Source: Ilumatobacteraceae bacterium (GTDB taxonomy: Bacteria; Actinomycetota; Acidimicrobiia; Acidimicrobiales; Ilumatobacteraceae). Taken from it: a stretch of DNA of 50,053 bases. The DNA lies in the NCBI GenBank assembly GCA_035633295.1, contig DASQFE010000603.1, positions 1 through 50,053 of the forward strand, given 5' to 3'. A model generated the notes under the pieces. That model worked only from the letters and a program-made list of their open reading frames with translations, had not been told where the DNA came from and searched no databases. The position numbers and the translations under genes were made by a program. Of this stretch, positions 6,129 to 45,471 are shown piece by piece; the stretch's first letter is position 1; the number at the start of each line of letters is the position of its first letter.

Positions 6129-6145
6129 TCTGACGCGGTGTCAGA
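6129..6145. promoter_or_regulatory. operator palindrome site 2: TCTGACG-CGG-TGTCAGA (1 mismatch)
   Basis: Lies between the SDR start (6101, minus strand) and echA20 (6167, plus strand). Confidence 0.65.
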
Positions 6146-6152
6146 TTGGGGG

Positions 6153-6158
6153 TACCAT
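6153..6158 (+). promoter_or_regulatory. -10 box TACCAT, 8 nt upstream of GTG 6167
   Basis: TACCAT ccacgccc GTG. It lies downstream of the alternative TTG 6146 start, which argues for 6167. Confidence 0.4.
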
Positions 6159-6166
6159 CCACGCCC

Positions 6167-6958
6167 GTGGGGATCTCGACGAGCATCGACGAAACCGGCA
6201 TCGCCGAGGTGGTGATGGACTGCCCGCCGGTCAATGCACTCACGGTCGCCGAGTGGTTCGAAGTCGCCTCGCAGGTGACGGCCGCCGGCCACGACAGTGG
6301 CGTTCGTGTCGTCGTGCTGCGCGCCGAGGGCAAGGGCTACAACGCCGGCGTCGACATCAAGGAGATGCAGAACACGACCGGGTTCAGTGCACTCCTTGGC
6401 GCCAACAAGGGGTGCTACGCGGCCTTTGCCGCGGTGTACGACTGTGAGGTACCGGTGATCGCCGAAGTCCACGGCTTCTGCCTCGGCGGCGGCATCGGCC
6501 TGGCCGGCAATGCCGACATCATCGTCGCGAGCGACGACGCCTACTTCGGCCTGCCCGAGGTCGATCGCGGCGCGCTCGGCGCCGCCACCCACCTCTCCCG
6601 CCTGGTCCCGCAGCACAAGATGCGCGCCATGGTCTACACCTCGGCAACGGCAACTGCTGCCGAACTGCATCACTTCGGCAGCATCCACTCGGTCGTTGCA
6701 CGCAGCGAGCTTCGCGATGCATCGAGGGCGCTTGCGGCCCAGATCGCATCGAAGTCACCAACGGTCATCCGCGCCGCCAAGGAAAGCCTCAACGGCATCG
6801 ACCTGTGGGACGTGAAGAAGAGCTACCGCTTCGAGCAGGGGTTCACGTTCGAACTGAACCTCAGTGGAGTTGCCGACGAGCTGCGCGACGATTTCGCCGG
6901 CACCACCAAGTCCGACTTCGCCGGCACGACAACATCCGGATCCGAGCGGGCCACATGA
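6167..6958 (+). CDS. echA20: enoyl-CoA hydratase/crotonase, EchA20-like
   Basis: Crotonase motifs: GKGYNAGVDIKEM, HGFCLGGGIGLAGNADI, FGLPEVDRGALGA. It lies directly upstream of ipdA with an ATGA overlap. The start is ambiguous (TTG 6146 or GTG 6167). I chose GTG 6167 because TACCAT (6153..6158) sits 8 nt upstream of it. Confidence 0.8.
   Translation: MGISTSIDETGIAEVVMDCPPVNALTVAEWFEVASQVTAAGHDSGVRVVVLRAEGKGYNAGVDIKEMQNTTGFSALLGANKGCYAAFAAVYDCEVPVIAEVHGFCLGGGIGLAGNADIIVASDDAYFGLPEVDRGALGAATHLSRLVPQHKMRAMVYTSATATAAELHHFGSIHSVVARSELRDASRALAAQIASKSPTVIRAAKESLNGIDLWDVKKSYRFEQGFTFELNLSGVADELRDDFAGTTKSDFAGTTTSGSERAT
6890..6937 (+). repeat. in-frame 24-bp x2 tandem duplication at the C-terminus of EchA20 (DFAGTTKS / DFAGTTTS)
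   Basis: gatttcgccggcaccaccaagtcc followed by gacttcgccggcacgacaacatcc. Confidence 0.85.
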
Positions 6959-7827
6959 GCCGCGACAAGCGCATCACCCACGACGAGGCCATCGGCTTGC
7001 TCGAGAGCGGCATGACGATCGGCATCGGCGGATGGGGGAGCCGCCGCAAGCCGATGTCGCTCGTGCGAGCGCTGCTGCGAAGCGATCTGAGTGACCTCAC
7101 CATCGTCACCTACGGGGGACCCGACGTCGGGCTGCTCGCCGCTGCCGGCAAGATCGCAAAGCTGGTGTACGGGTTCGTGTCACTCGACTCGATCCCGCTC
7201 GAACCGCACTTCCGCGCCGCCCGCCAGCAGGGCACCATCGCCGAGTGCGTCGAGTACGACGAGGGCATGCTGCAGTGGGCGCTCTACGCCGGCTCGTTGC
7301 GGCTGCCGTTCCTGCCCACTCGCGCCGGCCTCGGCTCGGGTGTGGTCGACGTCAACCCGGCGCTTCGCACGGTGCGCTCGCCCTACGCCGACGGCGAGGA
7401 GCTCCTTGCCGTTCCGGCGATCCGTCTCGATGCGGCCTTCGTGCACCTGAACCGCTCCGATCACTCTGGCAACGCCCAGTTCCTCGGACCTGACCTGTAC
7501 TTCGACGACCTGTTCCTCAACGCGTGTGAGCCGGGCCGTCGCTTCGTTTCGTGCGAGCGCGTCATCACGACCGAGGAACTGCTCGACGAAGGAACCTTCC
7601 ACACGCTGCGGATCAACCGCTCGATGGTCGACGGCGTCATCGAGGCGCCATCGGGCGCCCACTTCACCAATTGTCAGCCCGACTACGAACGCGACGAGGC
7701 GTTCCAGAAGGAGTACGCCACGGCAGCCGGCGACCCCGAACGGTGGGCGGCATTCACCCAACGGTTCCTCAGCGGAACCGAGGCTGACTACCAAGCGGCC
7801 GTTGCCGACTGGAGGACGGCGCTGTGA
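6955..7827 (+). CDS. ipdA: CoA-transferase-fold subunit A of the COCHEA-CoA ring hydrolase (IpdA)
   Basis: Motifs: SGMTIGIGGWGSRRKPMSLVRALLRSDLSDLTIVTYGGPDVGLL, LPFLPTRAGLGS, IEAPSGAHFT, FLSGTEADYQAAV. Near-collinear with mycobacterial IpdA as I remember it. ATGA overlap with echA20. Confidence 0.9.
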   Translation: MSRDKRITHDEAIGLLESGMTIGIGGWGSRRKPMSLVRALLRSDLSDLTIVTYGGPDVGLLAAAGKIAKLVYGFVSLDSIPLEPHFRAARQQGTIAECVEYDEGMLQWALYAGSLRLPFLPTRAGLGSGVVDVNPALRTVRSPYADGEELLAVPAIRLDAAFVHLNRSDHSGNAQFLGPDLYFDDLFLNACEPGRRFVSCERVITTEELLDEGTFHTLRINRSMVDGVIEAPSGAHFTNCQPDYERDEAFQKEYATAAGDPERWAAFTQRFLSGTEADYQAAVADWRTAL

Positions 7828-8579
7828 ACGCCCGTCTCGCCGACATCGTCGTGCTCGCGGCGGCCGAGGCATTCCGCGGTGACGGTGAGATCTTCGCGTC
7901 GGGAATGGGCACGATCCCGATGCTCGGAGCGCGGCTCGCCCGCAGCACCTTCGAACCCGACCTCATGGTGAGCGATGGTGAGGCGTTCTTCGTCGGCAAC
8001 GACCTTCCGATCGGCGGCACCGACAAGCTGGTCGAGGGGTGGATCCCGTTCCGCACCGTGTTCGACACGCTGTGGGGTGGGCGTCGCCACGTGATGATGG
8101 GTGCGTCACAGATCGACGATCGCGGCAACACGAACATTGCCAACATCGGGCCGTGGTCGAAGCCGAAGGCCCAGCTCCTCGGCGTTCGTGGTGGGCCCGG
8201 CAACACGATCAACCACGCCACGAGTTTCTGGATACCCAAGCACACCCCGTCGGTGTTCACTGCTGCGGTCGACATGGTGAGCGGCATCGGCTACGACCGT
8301 GCCGAGGGACTGGGCCCGTGGGTGCAGGCCCACCACGACCTTCGACGCGTGGTCACGAACCTGGCGGTGCTCGACTTCGAGTGCGATGAGCGACGGATGC
8401 GCCTTCGCAGTACCCACCCCGGCATCTCCGTAGCCGACGTCGTTGCCGCAACCGGTTTCGAGCTGGTGATCCCCCCTGACGTGCCGACGAGCCATGCGCC
8501 GACCGACGTCGAGTTGGCCGTCATCGACCGCCTCGACCCGACGGGCATCCGCCTGCGCGAAGTGCCCGACCCCGAATGA
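7824..8579 (+). CDS. ipdB: CoA-transferase-fold subunit B (IpdB)
   Basis: GTGA overlap with ipdA. Motifs: AAAEAFRGDGEIFASGMGTIPMLGARLAR, MMGASQIDDRGNTNIANIG, GVRGGPGNT. Confidence 0.88.
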   Translation: MNARLADIVVLAAAEAFRGDGEIFASGMGTIPMLGARLARSTFEPDLMVSDGEAFFVGNDLPIGGTDKLVEGWIPFRTVFDTLWGGRRHVMMGASQIDDRGNTNIANIGPWSKPKAQLLGVRGGPGNTINHATSFWIPKHTPSVFTAAVDMVSGIGYDRAEGLGPWVQAHHDLRRVVTNLAVLDFECDERRMRLRSTHPGISVADVVAATGFELVIPPDVPTSHAPTDVELAVIDRLDPTGIRLREVPDPE

Positions 8580-9658
8580 CGACACGTACTGCAATGCACG
8601 CCAGCCTCCACACCGAGGTGTGTGATCTGTTCGGCATCGATGTGCCGATCGTCCAGACCGGGATGGGCTGGGTCGCAGGCGCCCGGTTGGTGTCGGCGAC
8701 CGCCAACGCCGGCGCACTCGGCATCTTGGCGAGCGCCACGATGGAGTTCGACGAGTTGCAGACTGCGGTCAGCGAGGTCCGCTCGCGCACCGACCGTCCG
8801 TTCGGCGTCAACATGCGCGCCGACGCGCACGACATCACCGATCGTGTCGCGTTGCTGATCGACCAGGGAGTCCGGGTCGCCTCGTTCGCCCAGGCCCCGA
8901 AGGAGGCACTCATCTCCCGGCTCCACGACGGAGGGGTCCTGGTGGTGCCCTCGATCGGGGCCAAGCGTCACGCCGAGAAGGTGCTGGAGTGGGGAGTCGA
9001 CGCAGTACTCGTACAGGGCGGCGAGGGCGGCGGCCACACCGGCTCCGTGCCGACCAGCATCCTGCTCCCGCAGGTGGTCGACGCAGTACAGGGCCGCGTC
9101 CCGGTGATCGCGGCCGGGGGGTTCTTCGATGGCCGAGGTCTGGTCGCGGCACTGGCCTACGGCGCCGGCGGCGTCGCCATGGGCACGAGGTTCCTGTTGA
9201 CGAGCGACTCGTCGGTCCCCCAGTCGGTGAAGGAGTACTACCTCGCCAAGGGCGTCGCCGACACCACCGTGACCAAACAGGTGGACGGTGTCGCCCACCG
9301 AGTGCTGAACACCGAGCTCGTGAACCAGCTCGAATCTGGTCGCGGGAAGTTGCTCACGCTGCCACGAGCACTGCTCAATGCTCATCGGTTCCGCCAGATG
9401 ACCGGGTTGACGCTGGGCCAGATGTTGCGCGAAGGGAACGCCATGCGTCAGGGCGGCGAGCTCACCTACACCCAGATGGTGATGGCGGCGAACACGCCGA
9501 TGTTGCTCAAGGCAGCGCTCGTCGACGGCAACACCGCAGCGGGTGTGATGGCGAGCGGGCAGGTGGTGGGCATCATCGACGACCTGCCGTCGTGCCAGGA
9601 ACTGATCGATCGCATCATCGACGAAGCAGAGGCGACCCTTGCGCGGTTGGGCGCATGA
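8576..9658 (+). CDS. ipdC: nitronate monooxygenase / 2-nitropropane dioxygenase-fold acyl-CoA reductase (IpdC)
   Basis: ATGA overlap with ipdB. Motifs: PIVQTGMGWVAGARLVSATANAGALGILA, VLVQGGEGGGHTG, PVIAAGGFFDGRGLVAALAYGAGGVAMGTRFL. Confidence 0.88.
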   Translation: MTTRTAMHASLHTEVCDLFGIDVPIVQTGMGWVAGARLVSATANAGALGILASATMEFDELQTAVSEVRSRTDRPFGVNMRADAHDITDRVALLIDQGVRVASFAQAPKEALISRLHDGGVLVVPSIGAKRHAEKVLEWGVDAVLVQGGEGGGHTGSVPTSILLPQVVDAVQGRVPVIAAGGFFDGRGLVAALAYGAGGVAMGTRFLLTSDSSVPQSVKEYYLAKGVADTTVTKQVDGVAHRVLNTELVNQLESGRGKLLTLPRALLNAHRFRQMTGLTLGQMLREGNAMRQGGELTYTQMVMAANTPMLLKAALVDGNTAAGVMASGQVVGIIDDLPSCQELIDRIIDEAEATLARLGA

Positions 9659-10911: not shown

Positions 10912-12105
10912 TCACCGGGTGAACGTGATCGGCAACTCCTGGATGCCACGCACGAACGAGGAGTGGCTGTAGGTCGGCACGAAGTCACCGTCGGCGAGGC
11001 GGATGTCATGGAGGCGGGTGAGGATCTCGCCGAAGATGACCCGCAACTCGAGGCGGGCCAGTTGCGCACCGAGACACAGGTGGGGGCCGAATCCGAACGA
11101 CACGTGCGGGTTCGGATTCCGGGTGACGTCGAACTCGAACGGGTTGGCGAACACGTCGTCGTCGCGGTTCGCGGACAGGTAAGACATCAAGACCTGGGAT
11201 CCCTGGGGGATCGTGACACCACGCACGTCGACATCCTGCGTGGTCACCCGGTTCATGTTGTTGATGGGGGTGACCCACCGGAGGCACTCCTCCACCACCG
11301 ACGGGGCCACCGAGCCGTCGTGCACCGAGGCGGTGGCGATCGACAGTTGTTCCGGATGGGTCAGGAGCGCGTGCACGCCGCCGGTGATCACGCTGCGGGT
11401 GGTCTCGTTGCCCCCGACGAGCAGCAGCAGCGAATTGCCCACGATGTGATCCTCGTCGAGCGACTCGTCCCCGATCGCTGAGTGCACGAGTGTGCTGACG
11501 AGGTCATCTCGCGGTGTCGCCCTCCGGTCGGCGATGACATCGGTGATGTAGGTGAAATAGGCGAACGCCGCTCCGACGACCTCGTCGGTGACGTACGAAG
11601 CATCGTCGGACCCCCCGATCATCTGATCGCTCCAGTGCTGCAGCCGCTCGTAGTCGTCGGGGGATGCTCCGAGCATCTCGCCGATCAGGGTCATCGGCAA
11701 TGGCTTGGCGAACGCCTCCACGATGTCGCACGATCCGGCCTCGATCACGTCGTCGACGAGCCGGCCGGCGACCTCGCGCACATGGCCTTCGTACAACTGC
11801 ATCTGGCGGTTGGTGAACCCCTGAGCGACGAGACGGCGTTGTGCTGCGTGCAGCGGGTCGTCGCAGTCGATCATCGACGGCTGCGGCGCAACGTTCGGAC
11901 GCGACCCTTCGGCGTTCGAAAAGAGCAGTGGCTGGCGTTCAGCGGTGCGGATGTCGTCGTGCCTCGTGAGCGTCCAGACCCCGGTCGGGTCGCAGTAGAC
12001 CGGCTGGTTGGCGCGAAGCCAACTGAAGAACGGGTGCGGGTCACCGGCGTAGAGGTCGCGTTCGAGAAGTCGCTGCGCGGTCGGCTCATGGGGTGCCGAC
12101 GTCAT
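10912..12105 (-). CDS. cyp142: cytochrome P450, CYP142-like (steroid C26-monooxygenase candidate)
   Basis: Heme loop FGFGPHLCLG, EECLRW (ExxR), I-helix LLLLVGGNETT. Blocks WLRANQPVY, ERQPLLFSNAEGSRPN, MIDCDDPLH and RNPNPHVSFGFG match my memory of M. tuberculosis CYP142. Length 397 aa. Confidence 0.85.
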   Translation of the reverse strand: MTSAPHEPTAQRLLERDLYAGDPHPFFSWLRANQPVYCDPTGVWTLTRHDDIRTAERQPLLFSNAEGSRPNVAPQPSMIDCDDPLHAAQRRLVAQGFTNRQMQLYEGHVREVAGRLVDDVIEAGSCDIVEAFAKPLPMTLIGEMLGASPDDYERLQHWSDQMIGGSDDASYVTDEVVGAAFAYFTYITDVIADRRATPRDDLVSTLVHSAIGDESLDEDHIVGNSLLLLVGGNETTRSVITGGVHALLTHPEQLSIATASVHDGSVAPSVVEECLRWVTPINNMNRVTTQDVDVRGVTIPQGSQVLMSYLSANRDDDVFANPFEFDVTRNPNPHVSFGFGPHLCLGAQLARLELRVIFGEILTRLHDIRLADGDFVPTYSHSSFVRGIQELPITFTR

Positions 12106-13346
12106 GCGATGACTCCTGCTTCGTGGAGGCGAGCGAGCTCGGCCGGAGAGATGCCGAGTTCGGCAGTGAGGACCTGGTCGGTGTGCTCACCCTGCCACGG
12201 CGGGCGCGTCGGCGCGGTCTCGGTCAAGCCGGAGAGCTTCACCGGGTTTCCGGGGGTGACCACCGGCTCGGCCACGCCATCGGTGCGGTCGATCTCGATG
12301 ATCATGTCGCGTGCTGCGAGGTGAGGGTCGGCAATCACCTGCGCCGCGTTGAACACGGGGCCGGCCGCGACGCCGGCGTTCGCCAATGCGTGGCAGGCCT
12401 CGACGCTCGTCTTGTCGGCCGCCCACGAGTCGACCCCGTCGCGCAGCACGCCGATGTGTTCGCGCCAACCGGCACGGGTTGCGAACCGCTCGTCGCCCAT
12501 CCAGGCGGCCTGGCCGACGAGCGAGGCAAGCCGCTCGAACTCGTGCTCGCGGCCAACTTGCACGATGAACCATCCATCGCTGGCACGAAACCCGTCCAGG
12601 ATCATCTTCAGGCCCTGGCCGGGCTCGGGGCGCTCCCCCATCGACCAGTAGTTCGTGACGACATCGGCGAACGCAACCATCGAGTCGAACATCGCGACGT
12701 CGACGTACTGACCGGCGCCGGTGTTGTCACGTTCGCGCAACGCAGCGAGCAGGCCGATCACGCCGAACAGTGACGTGCCGATGTCGCCGAGCGCCCCGAC
12801 CGGCGAGACCACCGGCGGCTCGTGCGGCGTTCGTTTCCACTCGTAGAGACCGCTCATCGCCTCGGCGACAGCGGCATACGCCGGCCACGATCCGTACGGC
12901 GACTCGGTGGTGTTGCCGAAGCCGGAGATCGACAGGTACACCACCGCCGGATGCACGGCGCGTACGTCGTGGTAACCCAGACCCATCTTGGTGAGCGCAC
13001 CACCCTTGAAGTTCTCGCACACCACGTCGAAACCGGGCGCGAGGCGCAACACGAGGTCGCGCCCTTCTGGCGATTTCAGGTCGATGCAAATGGAACGCTT
13101 GCCGAGGTTGTTACGTAGGAACGTGGCGCCGACCGAACGACCCGACGGATCGAGCATCGATGGTTGCGAGCCTCGACCGAGGTCACCGGTTCGGGGGTTC
13201 TCCACCTTCACCACGTCGGCGCCCAGCCGGGCGAGTAGCTGGGTGGCGAACGGCAGTGCCTGCATCTGTTCGAGCGCCAACACCCGCACGCCGGCGAGCG
13301 GGCCGACATGGGCCGTGTCGGCGTCGGCTCCCCCTCCTGCGCGCAT
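12102..13346 (-). CDS. CaiB/BaiF family (type III) CoA-transferase
   Basis: Motifs: LAGVRVLALEQMQALPFATQLLARLGADVVKVE, DVVCENFKGGALTKMGLGY. ATGA overlap with the P450 start. TACAGT lies 6 nt upstream of ATG 13346. Confidence 0.85.
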   Translation of the reverse strand: MRAGGGADADTAHVGPLAGVRVLALEQMQALPFATQLLARLGADVVKVENPRTGDLGRGSQPSMLDPSGRSVGATFLRNNLGKRSICIDLKSPEGRDLVLRLAPGFDVVCENFKGGALTKMGLGYHDVRAVHPAVVYLSISGFGNTTESPYGSWPAYAAVAEAMSGLYEWKRTPHEPPVVSPVGALGDIGTSLFGVIGLLAALRERDNTGAGQYVDVAMFDSMVAFADVVTNYWSMGERPEPGQGLKMILDGFRASDGWFIVQVGREHEFERLASLVGQAAWMGDERFATRAGWREHIGVLRDGVDSWAADKTSVEACHALANAGVAAGPVFNAAQVIADPHLAARDMIIEIDRTDGVAEPVVTPGNPVKLSGLTETAPTRPPWQGEHTDQVLTAELGISPAELARLHEAGVIA

Positions 13347-13352
13347 CGCCCG

Positions 13353-13358
13353 ACTGTA
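13353..13358 (-). promoter_or_regulatory. -10 box TACAGT, 6 nt upstream of ATG 13346
   Basis: Minus strand: GTCAGA TACAGT cgggcg ATG. The operator occupies exactly the 17-bp spacer position. Confidence 0.45.
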
Positions 13359-13375
13359 TCTGACGGCCCGTCAGA
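13359..13375. promoter_or_regulatory. operator palindrome site 3: TCTGACG-GCC-CGTCAGA (perfect)
   Basis: Directly abuts the TACAGT -10 box (13353..13358, minus strand) of the CaiB-cyp142 unit. Confidence 0.7.
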
Positions 13376-13423
13376 CGGCGAGAACGCCATACCCACCCTC
13401 CGTCCCCCTCACCCACCCGGCCC

Positions 13424-13491
13424 AAAAGTGCGGTTTGTGTTGCAGTTCGGTTGGCCCGTCCCAACCGAAGTGTCACGCAAACCGGTGTTTT
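13424..13491. terminator. bidirectional intrinsic-terminator-like element: AAAAGTG, a long imperfect hairpin, then GTGTTTT
   Basis: Outer stem CGGTTTG (13431..13437) pairs with CAAACCG (13478..13484). Inner perfect 9-bp stem TTCGGTTGG (13446..13454) pairs with CCAACCGAA (13461..13469) around loop cccgtc. An A-run lies 5' and a T-run 3'. It sits in a divergent intergenic region, which is unexpected. Confidence 0.35.
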
Positions 13492-13509
13492 CGGGCGGGG
13501 GGCGGTTCC

Positions 13510-13536
13510 TTGAAATCGACACCGCATGAGTAGCGT
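13510..13536 (+). promoter_or_regulatory. candidate promoter TTGAAA-15 nt-TAGCGT for the pseudo-HMGCS/thiolase unit
   Basis: -10 at 13531..13536, with ATG 13544 starting 7 nt downstream. The spacer is short (15 nt), hence moderate confidence. Confidence 0.4.
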
Positions 13537-13543
13537 TCGACAG

Positions 13544-14938
13544 ATGCGAGGCATCCTTGGTTGGGGCACGTACCTCCCACACCGCCGGCTCGACCGCATG
13601 GAGATCACCGGTTTCATCGGCCAGGGCGGCGGAACGGGCACCCGAACGGTCGCCGGCTTCGACGAAGACCCCACCACCATGGCGGTCGAGGCCGCCCGAC
13701 GGGTTCCACAGGTGTCTACGGCTGATCTCCTCATGTTCGGGACCTCGTTTCCCGCCTACGCCGACAAGACCAACTCCACCGTCGTCCATGGCGCCATCCG
13801 GCTGAGCGCCGACGTGCCGGCGATCGATCTCGGCCAGAGCACACGGTCGGCTGTCGGTGGGATCCTGTTGGCGGCCCGCAGCAGCGGCACCGTGCTGGTC
13901 GCCGCAGCGGACATCCGCAGTGGCTGGGCAGGCTCGGCCGAGGAGGCCGCAGGCGGTGACGCAGGAGCCGCTGTCCTGATCGGCGACGACACGACGCACA
14001 CACCCGTACTCGCCGAGTTCATCGGCACCTCGAGCGCGACGGAGGAGTTCGTCGACCGTTGGCGGGCACCCGGCGAGTCGCGCACGAAGGTATGGGACGA
14101 ACGGTTCGCCGAGCTCACGTACGGACGTCTCGGGCTCCAGGCCTGGGCGGCCGCGCTGGCCGCTGCCGGTATCACGGCCGCTGACGTCGCGGCCGTCGCC
14201 GTCGCTGCTCCGACCGCCCGCATCGGCTCGACGCTCGCCGGTCGGCTCGGCGCGGGCAGGGTGATCGACAACCGTGCCGCCACGATCGGTGTCTGCGGTG
14301 CCGCGCAACCCGCGCTTGCCCTCGCCGACCTCCTGGAGCAGGCTGAACCAGGCCAGGTGGTCGCCCTCGTCTCGCTCGCCGACGGCGCCGACGTCATGCT
14401 GCTGCGAACATCCGTGGCGATTGCGGAGCACCGCACCGGCCCGACCGTTGCCCACCAGGCAGCCGGCGGGGCACCTGTCACCTACGGGCGGTTCCTCGCC
14501 TGGCGCGGGGGCCTGACCGTCGAGCCGCCACGCCGCCCCGAGCCACCGCGCGTCTCCGCGACGGCTGCGGCTCGCTCCAACGATTGGAAGCTCGGCTTCG
14601 TGGCCGATCGCGACCGCACCACGGGACAGGTCCACATGCCACCGCAGCGGGTCTCGGCCGACGGCGAACGCACCGATGCAATGGACCCTGCGCCGATGGC
14701 CGACGCCGTTGGTGTCGTGGCCACGTTCACCGTCGATCACGTCGCCTACTCCCCCAGCCCGCCGATCGTGTTCGCCGTGGTCGACTTCGAGGGTGGCGGA
14801 CGGCTGCCGATCGAGCTGTGCGACTGCGATGCCGACGACGTGATGATCGGCCTGCGGGTCGAGCCGACATTCCGCCGTTTGTACGTGCAGGACGGCATCC
14901 CCAACTACTTCTGGAAAGCGAGGCCCGTGCGTGGCTAG
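13544..14938 (+). CDS. HMG-CoA-synthase-like (thiolase fold) domain fused to a C-terminal DUF35 OB-fold domain; catalytic Cys/His/Asn apparently replaced
   Basis: N-terminus ILGWGTYLPHRRL...GFDEDPTTMAVEAA is HMGCS-like. DLGQSTRSAVGG sits where EFACKAGT is expected. AAPTARIG sits where FHQPNGKF is expected. The C-terminus (GFVADRDRTTGQVHMPP...FAVVDFEGGGRLPIEL) is OB-fold/DUF35-like. ATG 13544 is preferred over ATG 13526 because TAGCGT lies 7 nt upstream. Confidence 0.75.
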   Translation: MRGILGWGTYLPHRRLDRMEITGFIGQGGGTGTRTVAGFDEDPTTMAVEAARRVPQVSTADLLMFGTSFPAYADKTNSTVVHGAIRLSADVPAIDLGQSTRSAVGGILLAARSSGTVLVAAADIRSGWAGSAEEAAGGDAGAAVLIGDDTTHTPVLAEFIGTSSATEEFVDRWRAPGESRTKVWDERFAELTYGRLGLQAWAAALAAAGITAADVAAVAVAAPTARIGSTLAGRLGAGRVIDNRAATIGVCGAAQPALALADLLEQAEPGQVVALVSLADGADVMLLRTSVAIAEHRTGPTVAHQAAGGAPVTYGRFLAWRGGLTVEPPRRPEPPRVSATAAARSNDWKLGFVADRDRTTGQVHMPPQRVSADGERTDAMDPAPMADAVGVVATFTVDHVAYSPSPPIVFAVVDFEGGGRLPIELCDCDADDVMIGLRVEPTFRRLYVQDGIPNYFWKARPVRG

Positions 14939-16133
14939 CCATGGCATCAAGGACCGTGTCGCCATCGTCGGGATGAGCTGCACGAACTTCGTCGAGCATT
15001 GGGACAAAGGCCTCGATGATCTCCTCATCGAGGCGTCGGACGACTGCTTCGCCTCCGCCGGGATCGCCAAGGACGATGTCGACGCGTACTGGCTCGGCAC
15101 CGCCCAGGGCGGTATGAGCGGCATCACCCTCGCCCGTCCCCTCCAGTTGACCGGCAAGCCGGTCACCCGGGTCGAGAACTACTGCGCGACCGGCAGCGAA
15201 GCGCTGCGCCAGGCGTGTTACGCAGTGGCCAGTGGCGCATACGACGTGGCGATGGCCGTGGGCGCCGAGAAGACGAAGGACTCCGGCTTCCAGGGCCTCA
15301 ACGCAGTGCCGCCGCCGAACGATGGCACCGGCCGAACACTCACCGCTGCGGCCATGTTCTCGATGGTCACGCCCGCGTACGCCAACCGGTACGGCGTCGA
15401 TGTCGACACCATGCGCGACGCGATGGCCCACATCGCCTCGAAGAACCACCACAACGGCGCGCTCAACCCACGCGCGCAGTTCCGCAGGGAGGTGGCGAAG
15501 GAGACCGTCCTCAAGTCGCCGCGGGTCGCCGGGGATCTCGGCGTGTTCGACTGCGCCGGTGTCGCCGACGGCGCCGCAGCCGCCATCGTGTGCCGCGCCG
15601 AGGATGCGGCTCGCTTCACCGATCAGCCCCTGTACGTGAAGGCGTTGTCGTTCGTCGCCGGCAACGGATCGGGGCTCGGTGACCCCGCCTACGACTACAC
15701 GACGTTTCCCGAGATCACCGCCTGCGCTCTCGATGCCTACGCGCAGGCCGGTGTCGCCGATCCGGCAACGGAGATCGCCATGGCCGAAGTCCACGACTGT
15801 TTCACGATCACCGAACTCGTCCTGATGGAGGACCTCGGGTTCTGCCCACGCGGCACGGCGTGGCGCGACGTTCTCGATGGCCGCTTCGACCTCGACGGCG
15901 CGTTGCCGGTCAACTCCGACGGTGGGTTGAAGTCGTTCGGTCATCCGGTCGGTGCGTCCGGCCTGCGGATGATGTTCGAGGCCTGGCTACAACTGCGCGG
16001 CGAGGCGCCGCCCGAGCGTCGGATCGCAGGCCTGAACGATCGGGAGCGGCCACTGGCCCTCACCCACAACCTCGGCGGCTATCCCGGCGAGATGGTCAGC
16101 TTCGTGTCGATCCTCGGATCGCGACCCGGCTGA
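14931..16133 (+). CDS. SCP-x-type thiolase (acetyl-CoA C-acyltransferase) with intact catalytic residues
   Basis: The GTG start overlaps the upstream gene by 8 nt. Motifs: VENYCATGSEA (nucleophile Cys), EVHDCFT, GHPVGASG. Confidence 0.88.
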   Translation: MASHGIKDRVAIVGMSCTNFVEHWDKGLDDLLIEASDDCFASAGIAKDDVDAYWLGTAQGGMSGITLARPLQLTGKPVTRVENYCATGSEALRQACYAVASGAYDVAMAVGAEKTKDSGFQGLNAVPPPNDGTGRTLTAAAMFSMVTPAYANRYGVDVDTMRDAMAHIASKNHHNGALNPRAQFRREVAKETVLKSPRVAGDLGVFDCAGVADGAAAAIVCRAEDAARFTDQPLYVKALSFVAGNGSGLGDPAYDYTTFPEITACALDAYAQAGVADPATEIAMAEVHDCFTITELVLMEDLGFCPRGTAWRDVLDGRFDLDGALPVNSDGGLKSFGHPVGASGLRMMFEAWLQLRGEAPPERRIAGLNDRERPLALTHNLGGYPGEMVSFVSILGSRPG

Positions 16134-16166
16134 ATTCTGCAAGCAGATTCTGACCGGGCGTTCGCC

Positions 16167-16195
16167 TTGACGTCCGGGTTCTAATGCGCTACATT
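16167..16195 (+). promoter_or_regulatory. sigma-70-type promoter TTGACG-17 nt-TACATT driving a leaderless LLM transcript
   Basis: -35 at 16167..16172 and -10 at 16190..16195. ATG 16202 begins 6 nt after the -10, so the predicted TSS is at or next to the A of the ATG. There is no operator copy here. Confidence 0.55.
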
Positions 16196-16201
16196 ATCTC
16201 G

Positions 16202-17410
16202 ATGGAGTTCGGCGTCTTCCTCAACGGCTACATCCCAGGCCCTGCGGCCCACGACACCCAGAGCGAGCACACCGCGCTGATGCGTGAGGCGAGCTACGCG
16301 GTCCATGCGGACAAGTTCAACTGGAAGTACGCCTGGTTCGGCGAACATCACGCCCTGACCGAGTACAGCCACATGTCAGCGCCCGAAGTGATGATGGGGT
16401 ACGTCGCGGCAAAGACCGAGCAGATCCACCTGTCGTCGGCCATTGTCAGCTTCCCGACCACCAAAGAGCACCCGGTGCGCATCGCGGAGCGGGCTGCGAT
16501 GCTCGACCACATCACCGAGGGCCGCTACGAGTTCGGTACCGGCCGCGGTGCGGGCAGCCACGAGGTCGCCACCTTCAACGGCCTCACCACCGATGCAACC
16601 AAGAGCATGTGGAACGAGGTCATCCACGAGATCCCCCGAATGTGGGAGCAGCGTGACTATTGCTTCCAGGGTGAGCACTTCAGCGTGCCGACGCCGCACA
16701 ACATCCTGCCCAAGCCGTGGGGCGTGGGGCATCCGGCGATGTGGGTCGCGTGCGGCAACCCCGAGACATTCACGAAGGCCGGCTCGATGGGTCTCGGTGC
16801 GATCGCCTTCAACTTCGAACCGATCTACAACCTGCAGGGTCGCATCGACGCCTACAAGGAAGCCATCCAGAACCCCACCGAGATCGTCGGCCAGTTCAAG
16901 AACGACAACATCATGATGACCAACGCCGTGATCTGTCTCGAAGACCGGGCACGGGCCCGTGAGATCGCCATGAGCCGAGGACGGGGTTACCTCTACTCGA
17001 TGGTCTGCATGTACCACGACACGATGCCCAAGAAGGCCGGTCACCCGGTCTGGCCCGAGTCCCCGTTTGCGATCCCCGACGAGGCGATGCTCGACACGTT
17101 GATCGAAGCCGGCTTCCTGCTCTGCGGCACCCCCGACGAAGTGGCCGAGCAGGTGGAGCGTTACTCCACGGTCGGCTGCGACCAGTTGGCGTTCGGGCTG
17201 CCGAACGAAGGCTTCGAGCACGAAGAGATCCTCGAGTGCATCGAGCTGTTCGGCAAGCACGTGATCCCCGAATTCGATCGCGAGCCCGAACACTCCACCA
17301 CGCGTTACCGTCGCGAGGCCCAGCGCTCATTCCCGGAGTTCGCATTTGCCGTGCCCGATGTGCACGTCGATGTGATCCCCGAGAGCGCGCTGCTTCCCCT
17401 TCCCGTCTGA
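16202..17410 (+). CDS. LLM-class flavin-dependent oxidoreductase (large, ~400 aa type)
   Basis: MEFGVFLNGYIPG... is the canonical LLM N-terminus. The protein also has GRYEFGTGRGAG. I chose the internal ATG 16202 of track ORF 16184..17410. A TTGACG-17-TACATT promoter ends 6 nt before it. Confidence 0.88.
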   Translation: MEFGVFLNGYIPGPAAHDTQSEHTALMREASYAVHADKFNWKYAWFGEHHALTEYSHMSAPEVMMGYVAAKTEQIHLSSAIVSFPTTKEHPVRIAERAAMLDHITEGRYEFGTGRGAGSHEVATFNGLTTDATKSMWNEVIHEIPRMWEQRDYCFQGEHFSVPTPHNILPKPWGVGHPAMWVACGNPETFTKAGSMGLGAIAFNFEPIYNLQGRIDAYKEAIQNPTEIVGQFKNDNIMMTNAVICLEDRARAREIAMSRGRGYLYSMVCMYHDTMPKKAGHPVWPESPFAIPDEAMLDTLIEAGFLLCGTPDEVAEQVERYSTVGCDQLAFGLPNEGFEHEEILECIELFGKHVIPEFDREPEHSTTRYRREAQRSFPEFAFAVPDVHVDVIPESALLPLPV

Positions 17411-21615: not shown

Positions 21616-21632
21616 TCTGACGACCCGTCAGA
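21616..21632. promoter_or_regulatory. operator palindrome site 4: TCTGACG-ACC-CGTCAGA (perfect)
   Basis: Lies 20 nt upstream of ATG 21596. It overlaps the stop codon (21628..21630) of the preceding gene, so it marks an internal promoter. Confidence 0.65.
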
Positions 21633-22799: not shown

Positions 22800-22879
22800 G
22801 TTTGGCCTCCAGGTCGCATCGAGGTAGTTGGCATCGAGGTGGTTCGCGTCGAGGTGGGTCGCATCGAGATGGGTCTCAC
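22796..22879 (-). other. 27-codon relay ORF built from the 15-bp repeat, linked GTGA to the SDR stop and ATGA to the EthD start
   Basis: GTG 22879..22877 overlaps the SDR TGA (22878..22876). The frame reads VRPISMRPTSTRTTSMPTTSMRPGGQT. Its TGA (22798..22796) overlaps the EthD ATG (22799..22797). There are also internal ATGs, the first at 22864. Confidence 0.3.
22811..22875 (-). repeat. 15-bp tandem repeat, about 4.3 copies, filling the SDR-EthD intercistronic spacer
   Basis: Plus-strand units: gcatcgaggtagttg (22816), gcatcgaggtggttc (22831), gcgtcgaggtgggtc (22846), gcatcgagatgggtc (22861), plus a partial unit aggtc at 22811. Confidence 0.9.
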
Positions 22880-23646
22880 AGGCCGAGGAACGAACCACCG
22901 TCGCACACGATGGTCTGGCCGGTGACGAAGGAGGCGTCGTCGCCGGCGAGGAACAGGGCCACTGAACCGATGTCGTCGGTGATGTCGCCGACGCGCCCGA
23001 GCGGCGTGCGCTCCTCGATCGCTCGGCGTAGCGCCGGATTCTGCTCGAACGCCGACACGAGGGCGGGGCTGGCTGCCACCGGGGCGATGCAGTTGGCGGT
23101 GATGCCATGGTGGCCCCACTCGCGAGCGAGGCTCTTCACCATTGCACGCTGCGCCGCCTTGACCGGCGAGTACAGCGGGATGTTGGCGCTGCCCTCCATT
23201 GCCGAGGGGGAGGTCACCAGGATCAACCGTCCTTGCGATCCGGCTGCGGCCAGATGCGGGGAGGCGATCTGAGCGCAGTGGAACGATCCCCACACGGCCG
23301 TCTGCGACATCCTCTCCCAGTGCCGGTCGAGCTCGGCGTCTTCCAGCCGATGGCTCACCGCACCCGAGAACGCGTTGTGCACCATGATGTGCAGCGCGCC
23401 GAACCGCTCGACGGCCCCCCGCACACACGCGGCCACGCTGGCTCGATCGGTGACGTCGGTCTCGATACACACAGCCGATCCACCCGCCGAGACAATCGCC
23501 TGCGTCACCGGTTCGCCTGTCTCGGCCCGTCGGGCAGCAACGACCACATGGGCGCCCTCTGCGGCGAGCCGACGGGCGATCCCCTCCCCGACTCCCTGCC
23601 CCGCGCCGGTGACCACGGCCACGCGTCCGAGCAACCGGGCGGTCAC
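22876..23646 (-). CDS. SDR family oxidoreductase
   Basis: GTGA overlap with the upstream half-SDR. Motifs: VTGAGQGVG, YSPVKAA, VTGQTIVCDGG. Confidence 0.88.
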   Translation of the reverse strand: MTARLLGRVAVVTGAGQGVGEGIARRLAAEGAHVVVAARRAETGEPVTQAIVSAGGSAVCIETDVTDRASVAACVRGAVERFGALHIMVHNAFSGAVSHRLEDAELDRHWERMSQTAVWGSFHCAQIASPHLAAAGSQGRLILVTSPSAMEGSANIPLYSPVKAAQRAMVKSLAREWGHHGITANCIAPVAASPALVSAFEQNPALRRAIEERTPLGRVGDITDDIGSVALFLAGDDASFVTGQTIVCDGGSFLGL

Positions 23647-24128
23647 ATCCACACCCCGCCGTCGACGACGATGGTCTGCCCGGTCACATCGCCTGCCGCC
23701 TCGCTGCAGAGGAACTCGATGAGCGCCGTCGGATCGCGATCGGCCAACGCCGGCGGCGCCAACGATGTCGGACCCGCAATCGACGGATCGACATCGAAAT
23801 CCTCCGGTGCCACGGCCACCGCGTTGACCGTGACCCCATGTCGCCCCCACTGCCGCGCCGCCGACTTGACCAGCACGCGCACCGCCTCGGCCGGCGCGGC
23901 AAGGTGCACGTGACACGTCCCGCCCGACATCGCGATCGTGGGAACGATCACCACGATGCGTCGAGCACCGCCCCTGAACGCCGCTTGCAGCTCCGCGACC
24001 GTGTCACGCATCGGAGTCTCCCAGGCGTCATTCCACTGCTCGTCGGTGATGGTGTCGAACGGTCGGGCGATCGTGTCGAAGTTCGGGCGGATCACCACCG
24101 ACGTCGGTGGTGTGTCGGCTGGCCCCAT
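23643..24128 (-). CDS. N-terminally truncated, catalytically degenerate SDR-like protein (half-SDR, 161 aa)
   Basis: It aligns to an SDR from roughly strand beta-4 onward (TDEQWNDAWE..., VTVNAVAVAP, VTGQTIVVDGG). There is no GxxxGxG. AAPAEA replaces YxxxK. Only 56 bp remain before the divergent gene, so there is no room for a missing N-terminus. Confidence 0.7.
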   Translation of the reverse strand: MGPADTPPTSVVIRPNFDTIARPFDTITDEQWNDAWETPMRDTVAELQAAFRGGARRIVVIVPTIAMSGGTCHVHLAAPAEAVRVLVKSAARQWGRHGVTVNAVAVAPEDFDVDPSIAGPTSLAPPALADRDPTALIEFLCSEAAGDVTGQTIVVDGGVWM

Positions 24129-24155: not shown

Positions 24156-24172
24156 TCTGACGGTGTATCAGA
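24156..24172. promoter_or_regulatory. operator palindrome site 5: TCTGACG-GTG-TATCAGA (2 mismatches)
   Basis: Lies in the 56-bp divergent region between the half-SDR (24128) and the SDR (24185). It abuts TACCGT at 24173..24178. Confidence 0.6.
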
Positions 24173-35424: not shown

Positions 35425-36594
35425 TCAGGGCTTGTCCTTGCCCACGAGCCACATCGCGAAGAACTGCGACCCGCCGCCGTAGGCGTGGCCGACCGCCTTG
35501 CGCACACTGTCGATCTGGTGTTCGCCGGCAAGCTCCATCACCTGCATGGCTGCTTCGCCGAAACGAAGCATGCCACTGGCACCGATCGGGTTCGACGACA
35601 GCACGCCGCCGGACGGGTTGACCGGCAACGATCCCCCCATCTCGGTGATGCCGTCTTCGACCCATCGCCACCCGTCGCCCTTCGGCGCAAAGCCGAGGTT
35701 CTCGAGCCACATCGGCTCGAACCACGAGAACGGGACGTACATCTCGACGACGTCGATCTCCTCGGCCGGATTGGTGATGCCGGCCTTTCGCCACAGGTCG
35801 GCGGCACACATCTCGCCGGCCACAGGGCTGACCTGTTCACGACCGGCGAACATCGTGGGCTCGCTGCGCATCGCGGTCGCATGAACCCATGCGGCCGGCC
35901 GGCCGGTCGCGGCAATGTGGGCGTCAGCGGTCTCTTCGTCGGCGAGCACGAGCGCGATGGCGCCATCCGACGATGGGCAGGTCTCCACGAAGCGGATCGG
36001 GTCCCACAACATCGGCGACTCCATGGCGCGCTCGAGCGTCAGGCCCTCCTCGTGGAGGTGCGCGTACGGGTTCTTCAGGGCATTTCCGCGATCCTTCACC
36101 GCAACCATCGCACCGATGTGGCCGGGAACGTCGTATCGCGAGATGTAGCTGCGCACGATCGGCGAGAAGTACCCGCCGGCGCCCGCATGCACGGGCATCC
36201 CGAACGGGATGGCAACCGAGAGGGCCCACATCGCGTTGCCGTCGCTCTGCTTCTCGAACCCGATCGTGAGCACCCGCCGGTGGATTCCTCCCATCACGTG
36301 CTGCGCGGCGACGATCGCTGTGGAGCCGCCGACCGAGCCGGCGGTGTGCACACGAAACACGGGCTTGCCGTGCGCCGCGAGCGCATCGGCGAGCCACAGC
36401 TCCGGCATGGCCACACCCTCGAGCATGTCCGGCGCCTTGCCGATGACGATCGCATCGATGTCGGCGAGGGTGACATCGGCTGACTCCAGCGCGCGGTCGA
36501 CCGCCTCACGGACGAGGCCCGCGATCGACACGTCGGCGCGGCACGCGGTGTGCTGGGTCTGGCCTACTCCGATGACCGCACAGCGCTGCGCCAT
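35425..36594 (-). CDS. Ltp-type thiolase-like protein lacking the nucleophilic Cys (putative retro-aldolase, Ltp2/3/4 family)
   Basis: Thiolase fold (AVIGVGQT, PVNPSGG, NPIGASG). RVHTAGSVGG replaces VENYCATG. EMYVPFS replaces EVHDCFT. SNPIGASG replaces GHPVGASG. Confidence 0.82.
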   Translation of the reverse strand: MAQRCAVIGVGQTQHTACRADVSIAGLVREAVDRALESADVTLADIDAIVIGKAPDMLEGVAMPELWLADALAAHGKPVFRVHTAGSVGGSTAIVAAQHVMGGIHRRVLTIGFEKQSDGNAMWALSVAIPFGMPVHAGAGGYFSPIVRSYISRYDVPGHIGAMVAVKDRGNALKNPYAHLHEEGLTLERAMESPMLWDPIRFVETCPSSDGAIALVLADEETADAHIAATGRPAAWVHATAMRSEPTMFAGREQVSPVAGEMCAADLWRKAGITNPAEEIDVVEMYVPFSWFEPMWLENLGFAPKGDGWRWVEDGITEMGGSLPVNPSGGVLSSNPIGASGMLRFGEAAMQVMELAGEHQIDSVRKAVGHAYGGGSQFFAMWLVGKDKP

Positions 36595-37652
36595 CACTCT
36601 CCCTCCAGAACGGCGACGAGGTTCTGTTGCAGGCATGGCCCGCTCGCGCTGTGGGCAACCGCCCGGTCGGCGCCGCCGGCCAACAGCCGGTCGGCGGCCT
36701 CGGCGAAGCGGATCAGGCCGGCTGCCATCTGCGGGTTGGCGCACAGCGCTCCGCCGCTCGGGTTGATCACCGTCTGCTCCGCATCGAGCCCCAACGCCGA
36801 GGTGAGCAAGATCTGCTGGTGCGAGTACGGCGCGTACACCTCGGCGACGTCGACGCGGTCGGCAGCGACGCCGGCGTGATGAGCCGCAAGAGCCGCCGAC
36901 GACGCCTCGGTCAGCGAGTGACTCCCGAGTCGCTGACTGTCGATGCGATGGTCGATGCCACGGATCCAGGCCGGACGATCGCAGAGCCGACGGGCGGCGT
37001 CAGCCGACGCGAGCACGATGGCGACGGCCCCGTCGACGGGGAGCCCGCAATCGTGGGCGCGCAGCGGGGCGGTGACATACGGTTGCGCAAGCAGTTCTGC
37101 CGCGGTCATCGCGGTGCCCCATCCGATGAGGGGATTGGCGATGCCATCGCTGATGCTGCGAGCCACGACTGCGGCCATCGATGCCTCCGTGACCACTCCG
37201 GCGTCGAGGCAGGCCCGCGCTTGCACCGCGGCGATGGCGGTCGCCCCGGGCCACAGCGGCGCCATCATGTACGGATCGAGCTGGAGCGTGAGGATGCGGT
37301 CGATCGGCCCGGCCGTGGTCTTGCCGTTGGCGAAGACCAGCGCTGTCTCGGATTCTCCAGTTTGGATCTTGACCCACGCCTCGTAGAGCGCGAGCGCGCC
37401 GTCGCCTTCGACGTGGCTCTCCACGATCGGCGGCCACGCCCCGATCGCGTCGACCGCCGACACGAAGCTGAACGGCTGGCCGCTCATGTAGTCGCAACTG
37501 CCATGGCACCAGAAGTCGATGTCCTGACGCCCGAGACCGGCACGCTCGAGCACCTCGACGATCGTTGGTGCGATGAGTTCGACCGAGGTCAGCTCGGTGC
37601 GCATCTCGAGAGGGCGCTGGGCGGTGGCCACGATCGCCACGTCGCGCGTCAT
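36594..37652 (-). CDS. second Cys-less thiolase-like protein (Ltp family partner)
   Basis: TGATG junction downstream and ATGA upstream. VESHVEGDG sits at the Cys position. EVYAPYS and INPSGGAL are present. Confidence 0.8.
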   Translation of the reverse strand: MTRDVAIVATAQRPLEMRTELTSVELIAPTIVEVLERAGLGRQDIDFWCHGSCDYMSGQPFSFVSAVDAIGAWPPIVESHVEGDGALALYEAWVKIQTGESETALVFANGKTTAGPIDRILTLQLDPYMMAPLWPGATAIAAVQARACLDAGVVTEASMAAVVARSISDGIANPLIGWGTAMTAAELLAQPYVTAPLRAHDCGLPVDGAVAIVLASADAARRLCDRPAWIRGIDHRIDSQRLGSHSLTEASSAALAAHHAGVAADRVDVAEVYAPYSHQQILLTSALGLDAEQTVINPSGGALCANPQMAAGLIRFAEAADRLLAGGADRAVAHSASGPCLQQNLVAVLEGE

Positions 37653-38137
37653 GACGTGGCTCGAATGGTGGTGACGTCGGCCTCGCCGGTCGGGCGGAAG
37701 TACTCGATGTTCTCGAGCGAGGGACCCCATTCGTCGCGGGGCTTCCAGACCGGCTCGACACGCATGCCCATCCGTACGTCGTCGGTCTCGCACTCCTGGA
37801 TGAGGTGTTGCATCGAGATGTCGGCACCGTCGAGCAGGATCTGCGCGGCAACGTAGGGAATCTTCACCTTCTGGCCGAGGAACGGGACGTTGACGACGCA
37901 GAACGTGGTGATCGTGCCCGCCGGCCCCACTTCGACCTCGTCGCCGAGCGGAGCAGCACAGCGCGGACACACGCCATTGCGGGGCGGGAAGTACACCTGC
38001 TGACACACCGTGCAGCGACGGCCGAGCAACCGACCGTTCATGAGGCTCTCGAGATGGCCAGAGGCCGCCGGTCCGGCTGACCACTCATACGCGACGGAGA
38101 TCGGCTGGAGCAGACGCAACACCTGCTCGTCGCTCAT
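37649..38137 (-). CDS. DUF35 OB-fold protein with rubredoxin-like zinc ribbon
   Basis: CTVCQQVYFPPRNGVCPRC (CxxC...CxxC) followed by the OB-fold region GTITTFCVVN. ATGA overlaps on both sides. Confidence 0.82.
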   Translation of the reverse strand: MSDEQVLRLLQPISVAYEWSAGPAASGHLESLMNGRLLGRRCTVCQQVYFPPRNGVCPRCAAPLGDEVEVGPAGTITTFCVVNVPFLGQKVKIPYVAAQILLDGADISMQHLIQECETDDVRMGMRVEPVWKPRDEWGPSLENIEYFRPTGEADVTTIRATS

Positions 38138-38637: not shown

Positions 38638-38666
38638 GACTGCCGTTCTATCAGTCGTCGTCGGTT

Positions 38667-38683
38667 TCTGACGAGTCGTCAGA
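38667..38683. promoter_or_regulatory. operator palindrome site 6: TCTGACG-AGT-CGTCAGA (perfect)
   Basis: Lies between the DUF35/Ltp operon (start 38637, minus strand) and the ABC transporter operon (start 38751, plus strand). Confidence 0.7.
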
Positions 38684-38750
38684 TCCACCCTCGCGATTTC
38701 GCGACGGTGTGCTACGTTCACCGCAAGTTCTACTCCGGGGGGAAATTCAC

Positions 38751-40220: not shown

Positions 40221-40283
40221 TCGATCCCACCCACCGACGACCGACTCACTCGGTGATCCCCCGCTGACTCGACGGGAGTCTGG

Positions 40284-45454: not shown

Positions 45455-45471
45455 TCTGACGGGGCGTCAGA
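45455..45471. promoter_or_regulatory. operator palindrome site 7: TCTGACG-GGG-CGTCAGA (perfect)
   Basis: Lies between the LLM gene (start 45423, minus strand) and the ACAD pair (start 45496, plus strand). Confidence 0.7.

Follow-up and report, generated by a model that had tools for sequence, protein, structure and literature searches.

We analyzed a two-gene unit on contig DASQFE010000603.1 of an Ilumatobacteraceae bacterium (assembly GCA_035633295.1, positions 1 to 50,053 of the forward strand). The whole stretch of 50,053 nt is referred to below as the window, and its G+C content is 67%. The first gene (gene A) encodes a protein similar to hydroxymethylglutaryl-coenzyme A (HMG-CoA) synthase (HMGS) that is fused to a DUF35 domain, and the second (gene B) encodes an SCP2-type thiolase. 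The two products probably constitute a two-protein degradative thiolase system, in which gene B is the catalytic component and gene A is a structural pseudoenzyme partner. In January 2026, Liao et al. (Nat Commun 2026, PMC12960953) published this architecture along with biochemical assays, and the pair is an ordinary additional member. To that work the present analysis adds the breadth of the fused family and the purifying selection that appears to act on it, a clade whose DUF35 part is predicted to be zinc-free, a steroid-type gene island with a shared candidate operator, and the widespread misannotation of family members as HMG-CoA synthase. The coordinates of the features are collected in Table 1.

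The start codon of gene A was placed at 13544, and not at the upstream ATG at 13526, because the family consensus opens with MRGI. The resulting product is 464 amino acids long, one fewer than counted in a preliminary description of this locus. The same description had proposed an HMGS-like domain fused to DUF35, and on this point Pfam, NCBIfam, phmmer, AlphaFold2, and Foldseek concur, placing an HMGS-like thiolase fold and a DUF35 OB-fold on a single polypeptide. Pfam detected OB_ChsH2_C (PF01796) at residues 389-444 and, besides this, a sub-threshold FabH-C match only, and residues 2-323 align to the archaeal-type HMG-CoA synthase PRK04262 of NCBIfam with 105 bits, compared to a cut-off of 244 bits. 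The closest solved sequences found by phmmer both came from 6ESQ, namely its HMGS chain (E 5e-15) and its DUF35 chain (E 2.4e-8), and the other best matches were PhlA of the phloroglucinol acyltransferase and the MucA chain of 9VBO. The AlphaFold2 model, obtained with an alignment of 72 homologues, has a pLDDT of 88.5 and a pTM of 0.90. Foldseek ranked the HMGS chain 6ET9_I first for this model (TM-score 0.86 over the target, root-mean-square deviation 2.5 Å), followed by PhlA and MucA.

The catalytic tetrad of HMGS is missing from gene A. Its positions were read from the phmmer alignment of gene A with the archaeal HMGS 6ESQ_I, the numbering of which agrees with the published archaeal tetrad E82/C114/H238/N270 (Liao et al., 2026, PMC12960953). 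The alignment confirmed the three replacements that had been noticed previously, namely nucleophile Cys to Thr100, catalytic His to Ala221, and Asn to Val250, and revealed a fourth that had been overlooked, in which the catalytic general-base Glu is replaced by Ser68. Gene A thus retains none of the four residues; the posterior probabilities of the alignment in gene A are high for the Glu, Cys, and His positions and moderate for Asn. We then examined the same positions in 196 close homologues and in 100 diverse fused representatives. The Glu position is occupied by A, V, S, or T in the close set and by T, A, or S in the diverse set, the Cys position by V, T, A, or P and mostly by Leu, respectively, and the His position by A, T, S, or V and by A, S, Y, or T. 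Glu, Cys, and His are missing from their own positions in every sampled sequence (retained in 0/196 and 0/100), and therefore the fusion and the loss of the tetrad co-occur throughout the sample. Asn is kept in 109 of the 196 close homologues and in 28 of the 100 diverse representatives. The drift at the former catalytic positions resembles relaxed constraint, and the sequences agree with the previous view of the HMGS-like domain as catalytically dead. Many fused homologues without the tetrad (P0021, P0049, P0087, P0228, P0283, and others) are labelled "hydroxymethylglutaryl-CoA synthase" in JGI and NCBI, a name that is functionally misleading for these proteins because Glu, Cys, and His have been lost.

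The fused family is large. A word-indexed search returned more than 4,300 relatives of gene A, the best 120 of which are all full-length with 61-96% identity, and when representatives clustered at 50% identity were searched exhaustively, 2,567 clusters passed E ≤ 1e-3 and 471 passed E ≤ 1e-30. Among the best 150 cluster representatives, most are full-length fusions, with identity down to 31%. Named members belong to several phyla and include Bacillota (Aeribacillus, Falsibacillus), Desulfobacteraceae, and Acidimicrobiia; the closest public relative of the window is an Acidimicrobiia-type actinobacterial metagenome-assembled genome (MAG), termed L001, with 96% protein identity. Outside the tetrad, 98 positions are at least 97% conserved in the close clade (the 196 homologues), and about 43 positions are at least 85% conserved in the diverse set, which consists of proteins of 31-57% identity. 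Arg101, the residue next to the former Cys position on its C-terminal side, shows family-wide conservation, and the adjacent Ser102 is invariant in the close clade only. The loop EFxxRWRxPG (residues 168-177) is conserved in the diverse set and has a low pLDDT in the AlphaFold2 model, and the Pro/Arg-rich linker shows conservation at residues 328-344 within the close clade. Judging from the model, segments that are conserved and modeled with low confidence may be expected to fold against a partner. The overall pattern argues that the tetrad-less fused family is under strong purifying selection and represents a working module, not a relic.

A second loss is restricted to a part of this family. 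All four Cys of the DUF35 zinc ribbon are replaced in gene A (D357, T360, S371, and G374), which reads RDRTTG and VSADGER where the zinc ribbon has RCKTCG and VCPDCRR. The intact CCCC ribbon is present in 82 of the 100 diverse fused representatives and in none of the 196 close homologues. By this comparison, the loss of the zinc ribbon is a trait of the Acidimicrobiia clade to which gene A belongs.

The adjoining gene B has retained the complete set of thiolase motifs, as the preliminary description had stated. Gene B matches the NCBIfam family PRK06157 with 583.7 bits (cut-off 403), and among solved structures it is closest to the thiolase chain of the archaeal thiolase/HMGS/DUF35 complex (E 4e-53). 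The catalytic Cys in NYCATG, the HDxF-type motif HDCF, and the GHx-type motif GHP (Gly-His338-Pro) are invariant in all 77 aligned thiolases, comprising the window protein and 76 orthologues. The ORF coordinates agree with the reported 8-nt overlap between the two genes. The GTG at 14931 is the sole in-frame start of gene B that retains the conserved N-terminal VAIVG block, and it is preceded by a GAGG about 8 nt upstream; given this overlap and the GAGG, translational coupling of the two genes is plausible. The linkage is conserved as well, with the thiolase directly downstream of the fusion gene in 77 of 80 genome loci, and in at least two of the three exceptional loci the sequence stops too near the fusion gene for a thiolase to be visible. 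Across the loci the thiolase is consistently more conserved than the fusion (65-97% vs. 50-96% identity).

The pair was compared with known systems that combine the same modules. Liao et al. (2026, PMC12960953) mined 1,030 bacterial loci in which HMGS-like, thiolase, and DUF35 genes occur, and 1,001 of these have no secondary-metabolism neighbours. In their Pseudomonas fluorescens complex PfACAT/HMGS-DUF35, the fused HMGS-DUF35 lacks E-C-H-N and the thiolase (ACAT) has Cys, HDxF, and GHx. This complex formed neither HMG-CoA nor acetoacetyl-CoA from acetyl-CoA; it cleaves acetoacetyl-CoA in vitro, and the substitution H294Y in HDxF abolishes the activity (PMC12960953). The authors regard it as an evolutionary intermediate that has not been recruited to a pathway, with complex formation perhaps vestigial (PMC12960953). 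Compared with its published description, the window pair shares the fusion, the missing tetrad, and the intact thiolase Cys, HDxF, and GHx, and likewise lacks polyketide synthase (PKS) and nonribosomal peptide synthetase (NRPS) neighbours, as no PKS, NRPS, or type III PKS partner gene was found among the window ORFs scanned. Since the pair agrees with the P. fluorescens type in every sequence-level feature, we assign it to that system. It differs in coming from another phylum, in belonging to a clade that is also without the four zinc-ribbon Cys, and in being situated in a predicted catabolic regulon with homologues of steroid-pathway genes.

For each of the three modules, the archaeal complex of Methanothermococcus (6ESQ/6ET9) is the closest match in both sequence and fold, and its thiolase is also of the SCP2/HDxF type. 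The components are therefore homologous by sequence and fold, as was proposed in the preliminary description. However, the archaeal HMGS is active, with E82/C114/H238/N270, and channels acetoacetyl-CoA into the mevalonate pathway, and the archaeal DUF35 is a separate zinc-binding protein with a Cys4 ribbon. Because the synthase of gene A appears dead and its DUF35 part is fused and predicted to be zinc-free, the window pair is not an archaeal mevalonate complex; its genomic context is also catabolic. PhlACB of Pseudomonas protegens (5M3K and 5MG5, related 9SKH/9SKM) and MucABC of Streptococcus macacae (9VBO and 9VBT) likewise contain a tetrad-less HMGS-like subunit, which plays no catalytic part itself and is combined with a thiolase-fold catalytic subunit and DUF35. 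Their thiolase subunit has lost the His of HDxF and performs Friedel-Crafts acylation, and in contrast to the window pair they consist of three separate proteins encoded in secondary-metabolite clusters. With HDCF intact in gene B, the window pair is not a PhlACB-type acylase. In the benzoylsuccinyl-CoA thiolase BbsAB (7PXP) and the steroid aldolase Ltp2-ChsH2(DUF35) (6OK1), an SCP2-type enzyme that acts on bulky CoA esters needs a DUF35 partner, and gene B is recognisably homologous to BbsB and Ltp2. Unlike gene A, these systems have no HMGS-like domain, and ChsH2 joins its DUF35 to a MaoC hydratase in one protein. Ltp2, an aldolase, is not known to carry the thiolase Cys.

From these comparisons we propose that gene B would be the only catalytic subunit, in which Cys85 serves as the nucleophile alongside the His288-Asp-Cys290-Phe and Gly-His338 motifs. 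Gene A keeps the archaeal HMGS fold and the DUF35 clamp in one chain, without tetrad or zinc ribbon, and may be retained because it assembles with the thiolase, as in the archaeal, PhlACB, and MucABC complexes. It most likely forms the other wall of a shared CoA/substrate chamber and holds the oligomer together, and the pair is most likely thiolytic, cleaving a 3-oxoacyl-CoA with CoA. In the published systems, MucB alone is inactive and needs its HMGS-like and DUF35 partners, and the interfacial CoA chamber is retained in PhlACB and MucABC, whose HMGS-like subunits lack the tetrad (PMC12960953). A scaffold or accessory role for gene A, already suggested in the preliminary description, would by analogy follow the way in which the literature reads the P. 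fluorescens pair, PhlACB, and MucABC. Several points weigh against this proposal. The physical complex of the two proteins is postulated by analogy, and the likeness to the P. fluorescens protein was judged from its published description. That protein, the sole assayed relative, was tried with acetoacetyl-CoA only. With its zinc ribbon lost, the DUF35 part of this clade is not identical to that of the characterised complexes. Arg101 is conserved family-wide and 109 of 196 close homologues have Asn, so the former pocket may still accommodate a ligand or serve another chemistry. Finally, the neighbourhoods differ between clades, so the link to steroids may be local.

One alternative is that gene A is not dead and has been neofunctionalised, with other conserved residues (e.g., Arg101/Ser102, Asp95, Glu134/Asp139, and Arg174) catalysing or gating a different step, such as hydration, decarboxylation, or acyl-acceptor binding or presentation. 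We consider this unlikely. The strong conservation beside the former nucleophile and in the loop homologous to the DFWR region of HMGS would be in its favour, as would the frequent equivalent of Asn270 in the close homologues and the interfacial chamber kept in the PhlACB and MucABC structures. However, the Glu, Cys, and His positions vary freely, unlike those of a re-tuned active site, the characterised relatives have their catalytic pocket in the thiolase subunit, and we know of no Cys-less chemistry in the thiolase superfamily.

Another alternative is that the pair is biosynthetic, like the archaeal thiolase half, condensing acyl-CoA, e.g., to acetoacetyl-CoA or a branched 3-oxoacyl-CoA for the synthesis of a lipid or storage polymer. 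Thiolases are reversible, the archaeal homologue is biosynthetic, and the NCBIfam family of the thiolase bears the name "acetyl-CoA acetyltransferase". Without an active HMGS to pull the unfavourable condensation, however, the rationale for channelling is gone, and the neighbours of the pair are catabolic (acyl-CoA dehydrogenases, hydratases, CoA ligases and transferases, and the ring-cleaving IpdAB). The P. fluorescens complex, moreover, made no acetoacetyl-CoA from acetyl-CoA (PMC12960953), and a biosynthetic direction appears quite improbable to us. A CoA-dependent Friedel-Crafts C-acyltransferase of the PhlACB/MucABC type, acting on a small-molecule acceptor, is very improbable: PhlA and MucA, both tetrad-less, are among the closest solved relatives of gene A, but the HDxF His lost from their thiolase partners belongs to a motif that is invariant in the gene B orthologues, DUF35 is a separate protein in those systems, and the scanned window ORFs include no PKS or NRPS neighbours. 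That gene A is a decaying "evolutionary vestige" with a merely historical link to the thiolase, in line with the view of the P. fluorescens complex as an unrecruited and perhaps vestigial intermediate (PMC12960953), is hardly credible, since it is full-length with its 98 near-invariant positions maintained over an entire class-level clade, is widespread (471 clusters at 50% identity in several phyla), is linked to the thiolase in 77/80 loci, and belongs to a family in which neither a dN/dS near 1 nor frequent frameshifts were seen, all of which points to purifying selection and not to decay.

The region upstream of gene A contains a candidate regulatory site. The preliminary description had reported a promoter of its own and no operator palindrome for this unit. 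The latter is contradicted by a perfect 17-bp palindrome, TCTGACG-N3-CGTCAGA, situated between gene A and the divergent CoA-transferase gene, and by an inverted repeat downstream of it. The window contains five perfect copies of the palindrome (938-954, 13359-13375, 21616-21632, 38667-38683, and 45455-45471), compared to none in shuffled sequence, and two near copies with 1-2 mismatches (6129-6145 and 24156-24172). Nearly all copies are clearly intergenic, mostly between divergent genes, and the genes behind them are those for a luciferase-like monooxygenase (LLM)/short-chain dehydrogenase (SDR)-acyl-CoA dehydrogenase (ACAD), an SDR/hydratase-IpdAB, the CoA-transferase/gene A, an ABC importer, and an LLM/ACAD pair. 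Of the 80 loci, 14 carry the palindrome ahead of the orthologous gene, typically some 46 nt upstream of its start codon. TCTGACG-N3-CGTCAGA is likely, on this pattern of occurrence, the operator of an undescribed catabolic regulon, and through it the pair would be co-regulated with the surrounding β-oxidation-type and steroid-catabolism genes. It differs from the KstR and KstR2 motifs, and no TetR-like regulator gene was identified among the window ORFs scanned.

The inverted repeat has 42-nt arms and a 6-nt spacer and would, as RNA, fold with -63.5 kcal/mol (z = -3.95). The repeat in L001 (about 7860-7950) is nearly perfect and differs from that of the window on both arms. A search with the exact core found the long hairpin only in the window and in L001, and other relatives carry a short spacer instead. 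The element is a lineage-specific insertion that could represent a small palindromic insertion or a 5'-UTR structure; Rfam, run over 13000-16500, returned no RNA family for it. As for the promoter, a scan for sigma-70-like promoter and terminator consensus sequences gave no match upstream of gene A and thus no support for the earlier claim, such a consensus saying little for an actinobacterium, and its sole match coincides in part with the beginning of the LLM gene downstream and probably has no significance.

The neighbourhood of the pair contains homologues of both the IpdAB ring-C hydrolase and a C26-monooxygenase P450, in keeping with the context of an actinobacterial steroid catabolic cluster of the KstR/KstR2 type. 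The P450 gene lies on the strand opposite to gene A, two genes upstream, and its product is closest to CYP142 and to a reconstructed CYP125 ancestor. The hydratase-IpdA-IpdB-reductase run at 6146-9658 has the same order as echA20-ipdA-ipdB-ipdC of the mycobacterial KstR2 regulon, and the second DUF35 cluster at 35425-38721 resembles Rv3521-ltp4-ltp3. In the latter, the thiolase-like genes match PRK07937 ("lipid-transfer protein") and PRK08313 (thiolase-domain protein), next to one or two DUF35 ORFs, one of which has an intact zf-ChsH2 ribbon; these ORFs overlap in two frames and may represent two genes or a frameshift. The family-III CoA-transferase is a recurrent partner: of the 73 loci whose upstream sequence is long enough, 26 have it adjacent to and divergent from the fusion gene, and in 46 of 80 it is found no more than 8 kb away. 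Its assignment as an α-methylacyl-CoA racemase was rejected, as it scored 203-168 bits against true CoA-transferases and about 89 bits against MCR. The LLM gene directly downstream of gene B possibly belongs to the same operon. Directly behind an operator copy, a Liv-type ABC importer (38709-43278, + strand) comprises a Peripla_BP_6 binding protein, a 758-aa fused permease, and a LivG-like ATPase, and is a candidate uptake system for the substrate of the regulon. Near an operator near-copy, two SDR-like ORFs (22876-24128, - strand) overlap in different frames; that of 346 aa has a full SDR domain and that of 161 aa covers the C-terminal two-thirds of the profile, maybe as a truncated or frameshifted SDR. 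The remaining window genes encode paired acyl-CoA dehydrogenases, several CoA ligases, SDRs, LLM oxidoreductases, and an ABC importer.

Table 1. Positions of the gene pair, its diagnostic residues, the upstream elements, and neighbouring genes in the window.
Feature	Position (nt)	Strand	Basis or remark
Gene A, putative HMGS-like pseudoenzyme fused to DUF35	13544-14938	+	464 aa plus stop; Pfam, NCBIfam, phmmer, AlphaFold2, Foldseek
Gene A, HMGS-like thiolase-fold domain (about aa 1-310)	13544-14473	+	
Gene A, Pro/Arg-rich linker (aa 311-350)	14474-14593	+	conserved
Gene A, DUF35 region (aa 351-464)	14594-14935	+	zinc-ribbon remnant, then OB-fold
Ser68 codon, opposite HMGS catalytic Glu (E82)	13745-13747	+	phmmer alignment
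Thr100 codon, opposite HMGS nucleophile Cys (C114)	13841-13843	+	phmmer alignment
Ala221 codon, opposite HMGS catalytic His (H238)	14204-14206	+	phmmer alignment
Val250 codon, opposite HMGS Asn (N270)	14291-14293	+	phmmer alignment
Gene B, SCP2-type thiolase	14931-16133	+	400 aa, GTG start
Gene B, Cys85	15183-15185	+	
Gene B, His288-Asp-Cys290-Phe (HDCF)	15792-15803	+	
Perfect 17-bp palindrome TCTGACGGCCCGTCAGA, candidate operator	13359-13375	.	between divergent CoA-transferase and gene A
Imperfect inverted repeat	13413-13502	.	between operator and gene A start codon
Family-III CoA-transferase	12102-13346	-	divergent from gene A; Pfam, NCBIfam
LLM	16184-17410	+	directly downstream of gene B; conserved in closest relatives only
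CYP142-type P450	10912-12105	-	318 bits to steroid C26-monooxygenases
Enoyl-CoA hydratase	6146-6958	+	
IpdA homologue	6805-7827	+	337 bits to steroid ring-C hydrolase 6CO6
IpdB homologue	7824-8579	+	243 bits to 6CO6
NMO/FabK-family reductase	8576-9658	+	
Second DUF35 plus two SCP2-thiolase-like genes	35425-38721	-	PRK08313 651 bits, PRK07937 463 bits

The steroid-type neighbourhood of the window pair is common only to the closest relatives. In three distant loci from sponge-associated or marine Acidimicrobiia (L027, L029, and L066), the pair is flanked by genes for Amidohydro_2, the large subunit of a molybdenum hydroxylase, a PhyH dioxygenase, LLMs, and another family-III CoA-transferase, which makes up a catabolic context of another kind. 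Since distant members have other neighbours, the fused family as a whole is not steroid-specific. The steroid or branched acyl-CoA substrate suggested in the preliminary description is thus favoured within the lineage of gene A, by the CYP142-like P450, the IpdA and IpdB homologues, and the Ltp3/Ltp4-like cluster, but does not extend to the distant members, and the assayed relative cleaves acetoacetyl-CoA. The leading substrate candidate in this lineage would be a 3-oxoacyl-CoA derived from a sterol side chain or from rings C/D. On this basis we tentatively raise a more specific possibility, which we regard as doubtful at present: that the zinc-free pair of the Acidimicrobiia is a dedicated thiolase of a steroid or isoprenoid pathway, standing in for FadA5/FadA6, with the pseudoenzyme shaping a chamber for bulky 3-oxoacyl-CoA under the undescribed TCTGACG-N3-CGTCAGA regulon, and not an "unrecruited evolutionary intermediate".

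The annotation of fused homologues as HMG-CoA synthase could yield false calls of the mevalonate pathway in metabolic reconstructions from MAGs. The DUF35 variant without zinc ligands indicates that the metal site of the ribbon is dispensable once the domain is tethered. The steroid-type neighbourhood and the shared operator together provide a concrete, testable lead to the physiological substrate of the pair, and if the pair were indeed a steroid or isoprenoid thiolase, the whole widespread fused family would gain a physiological role.

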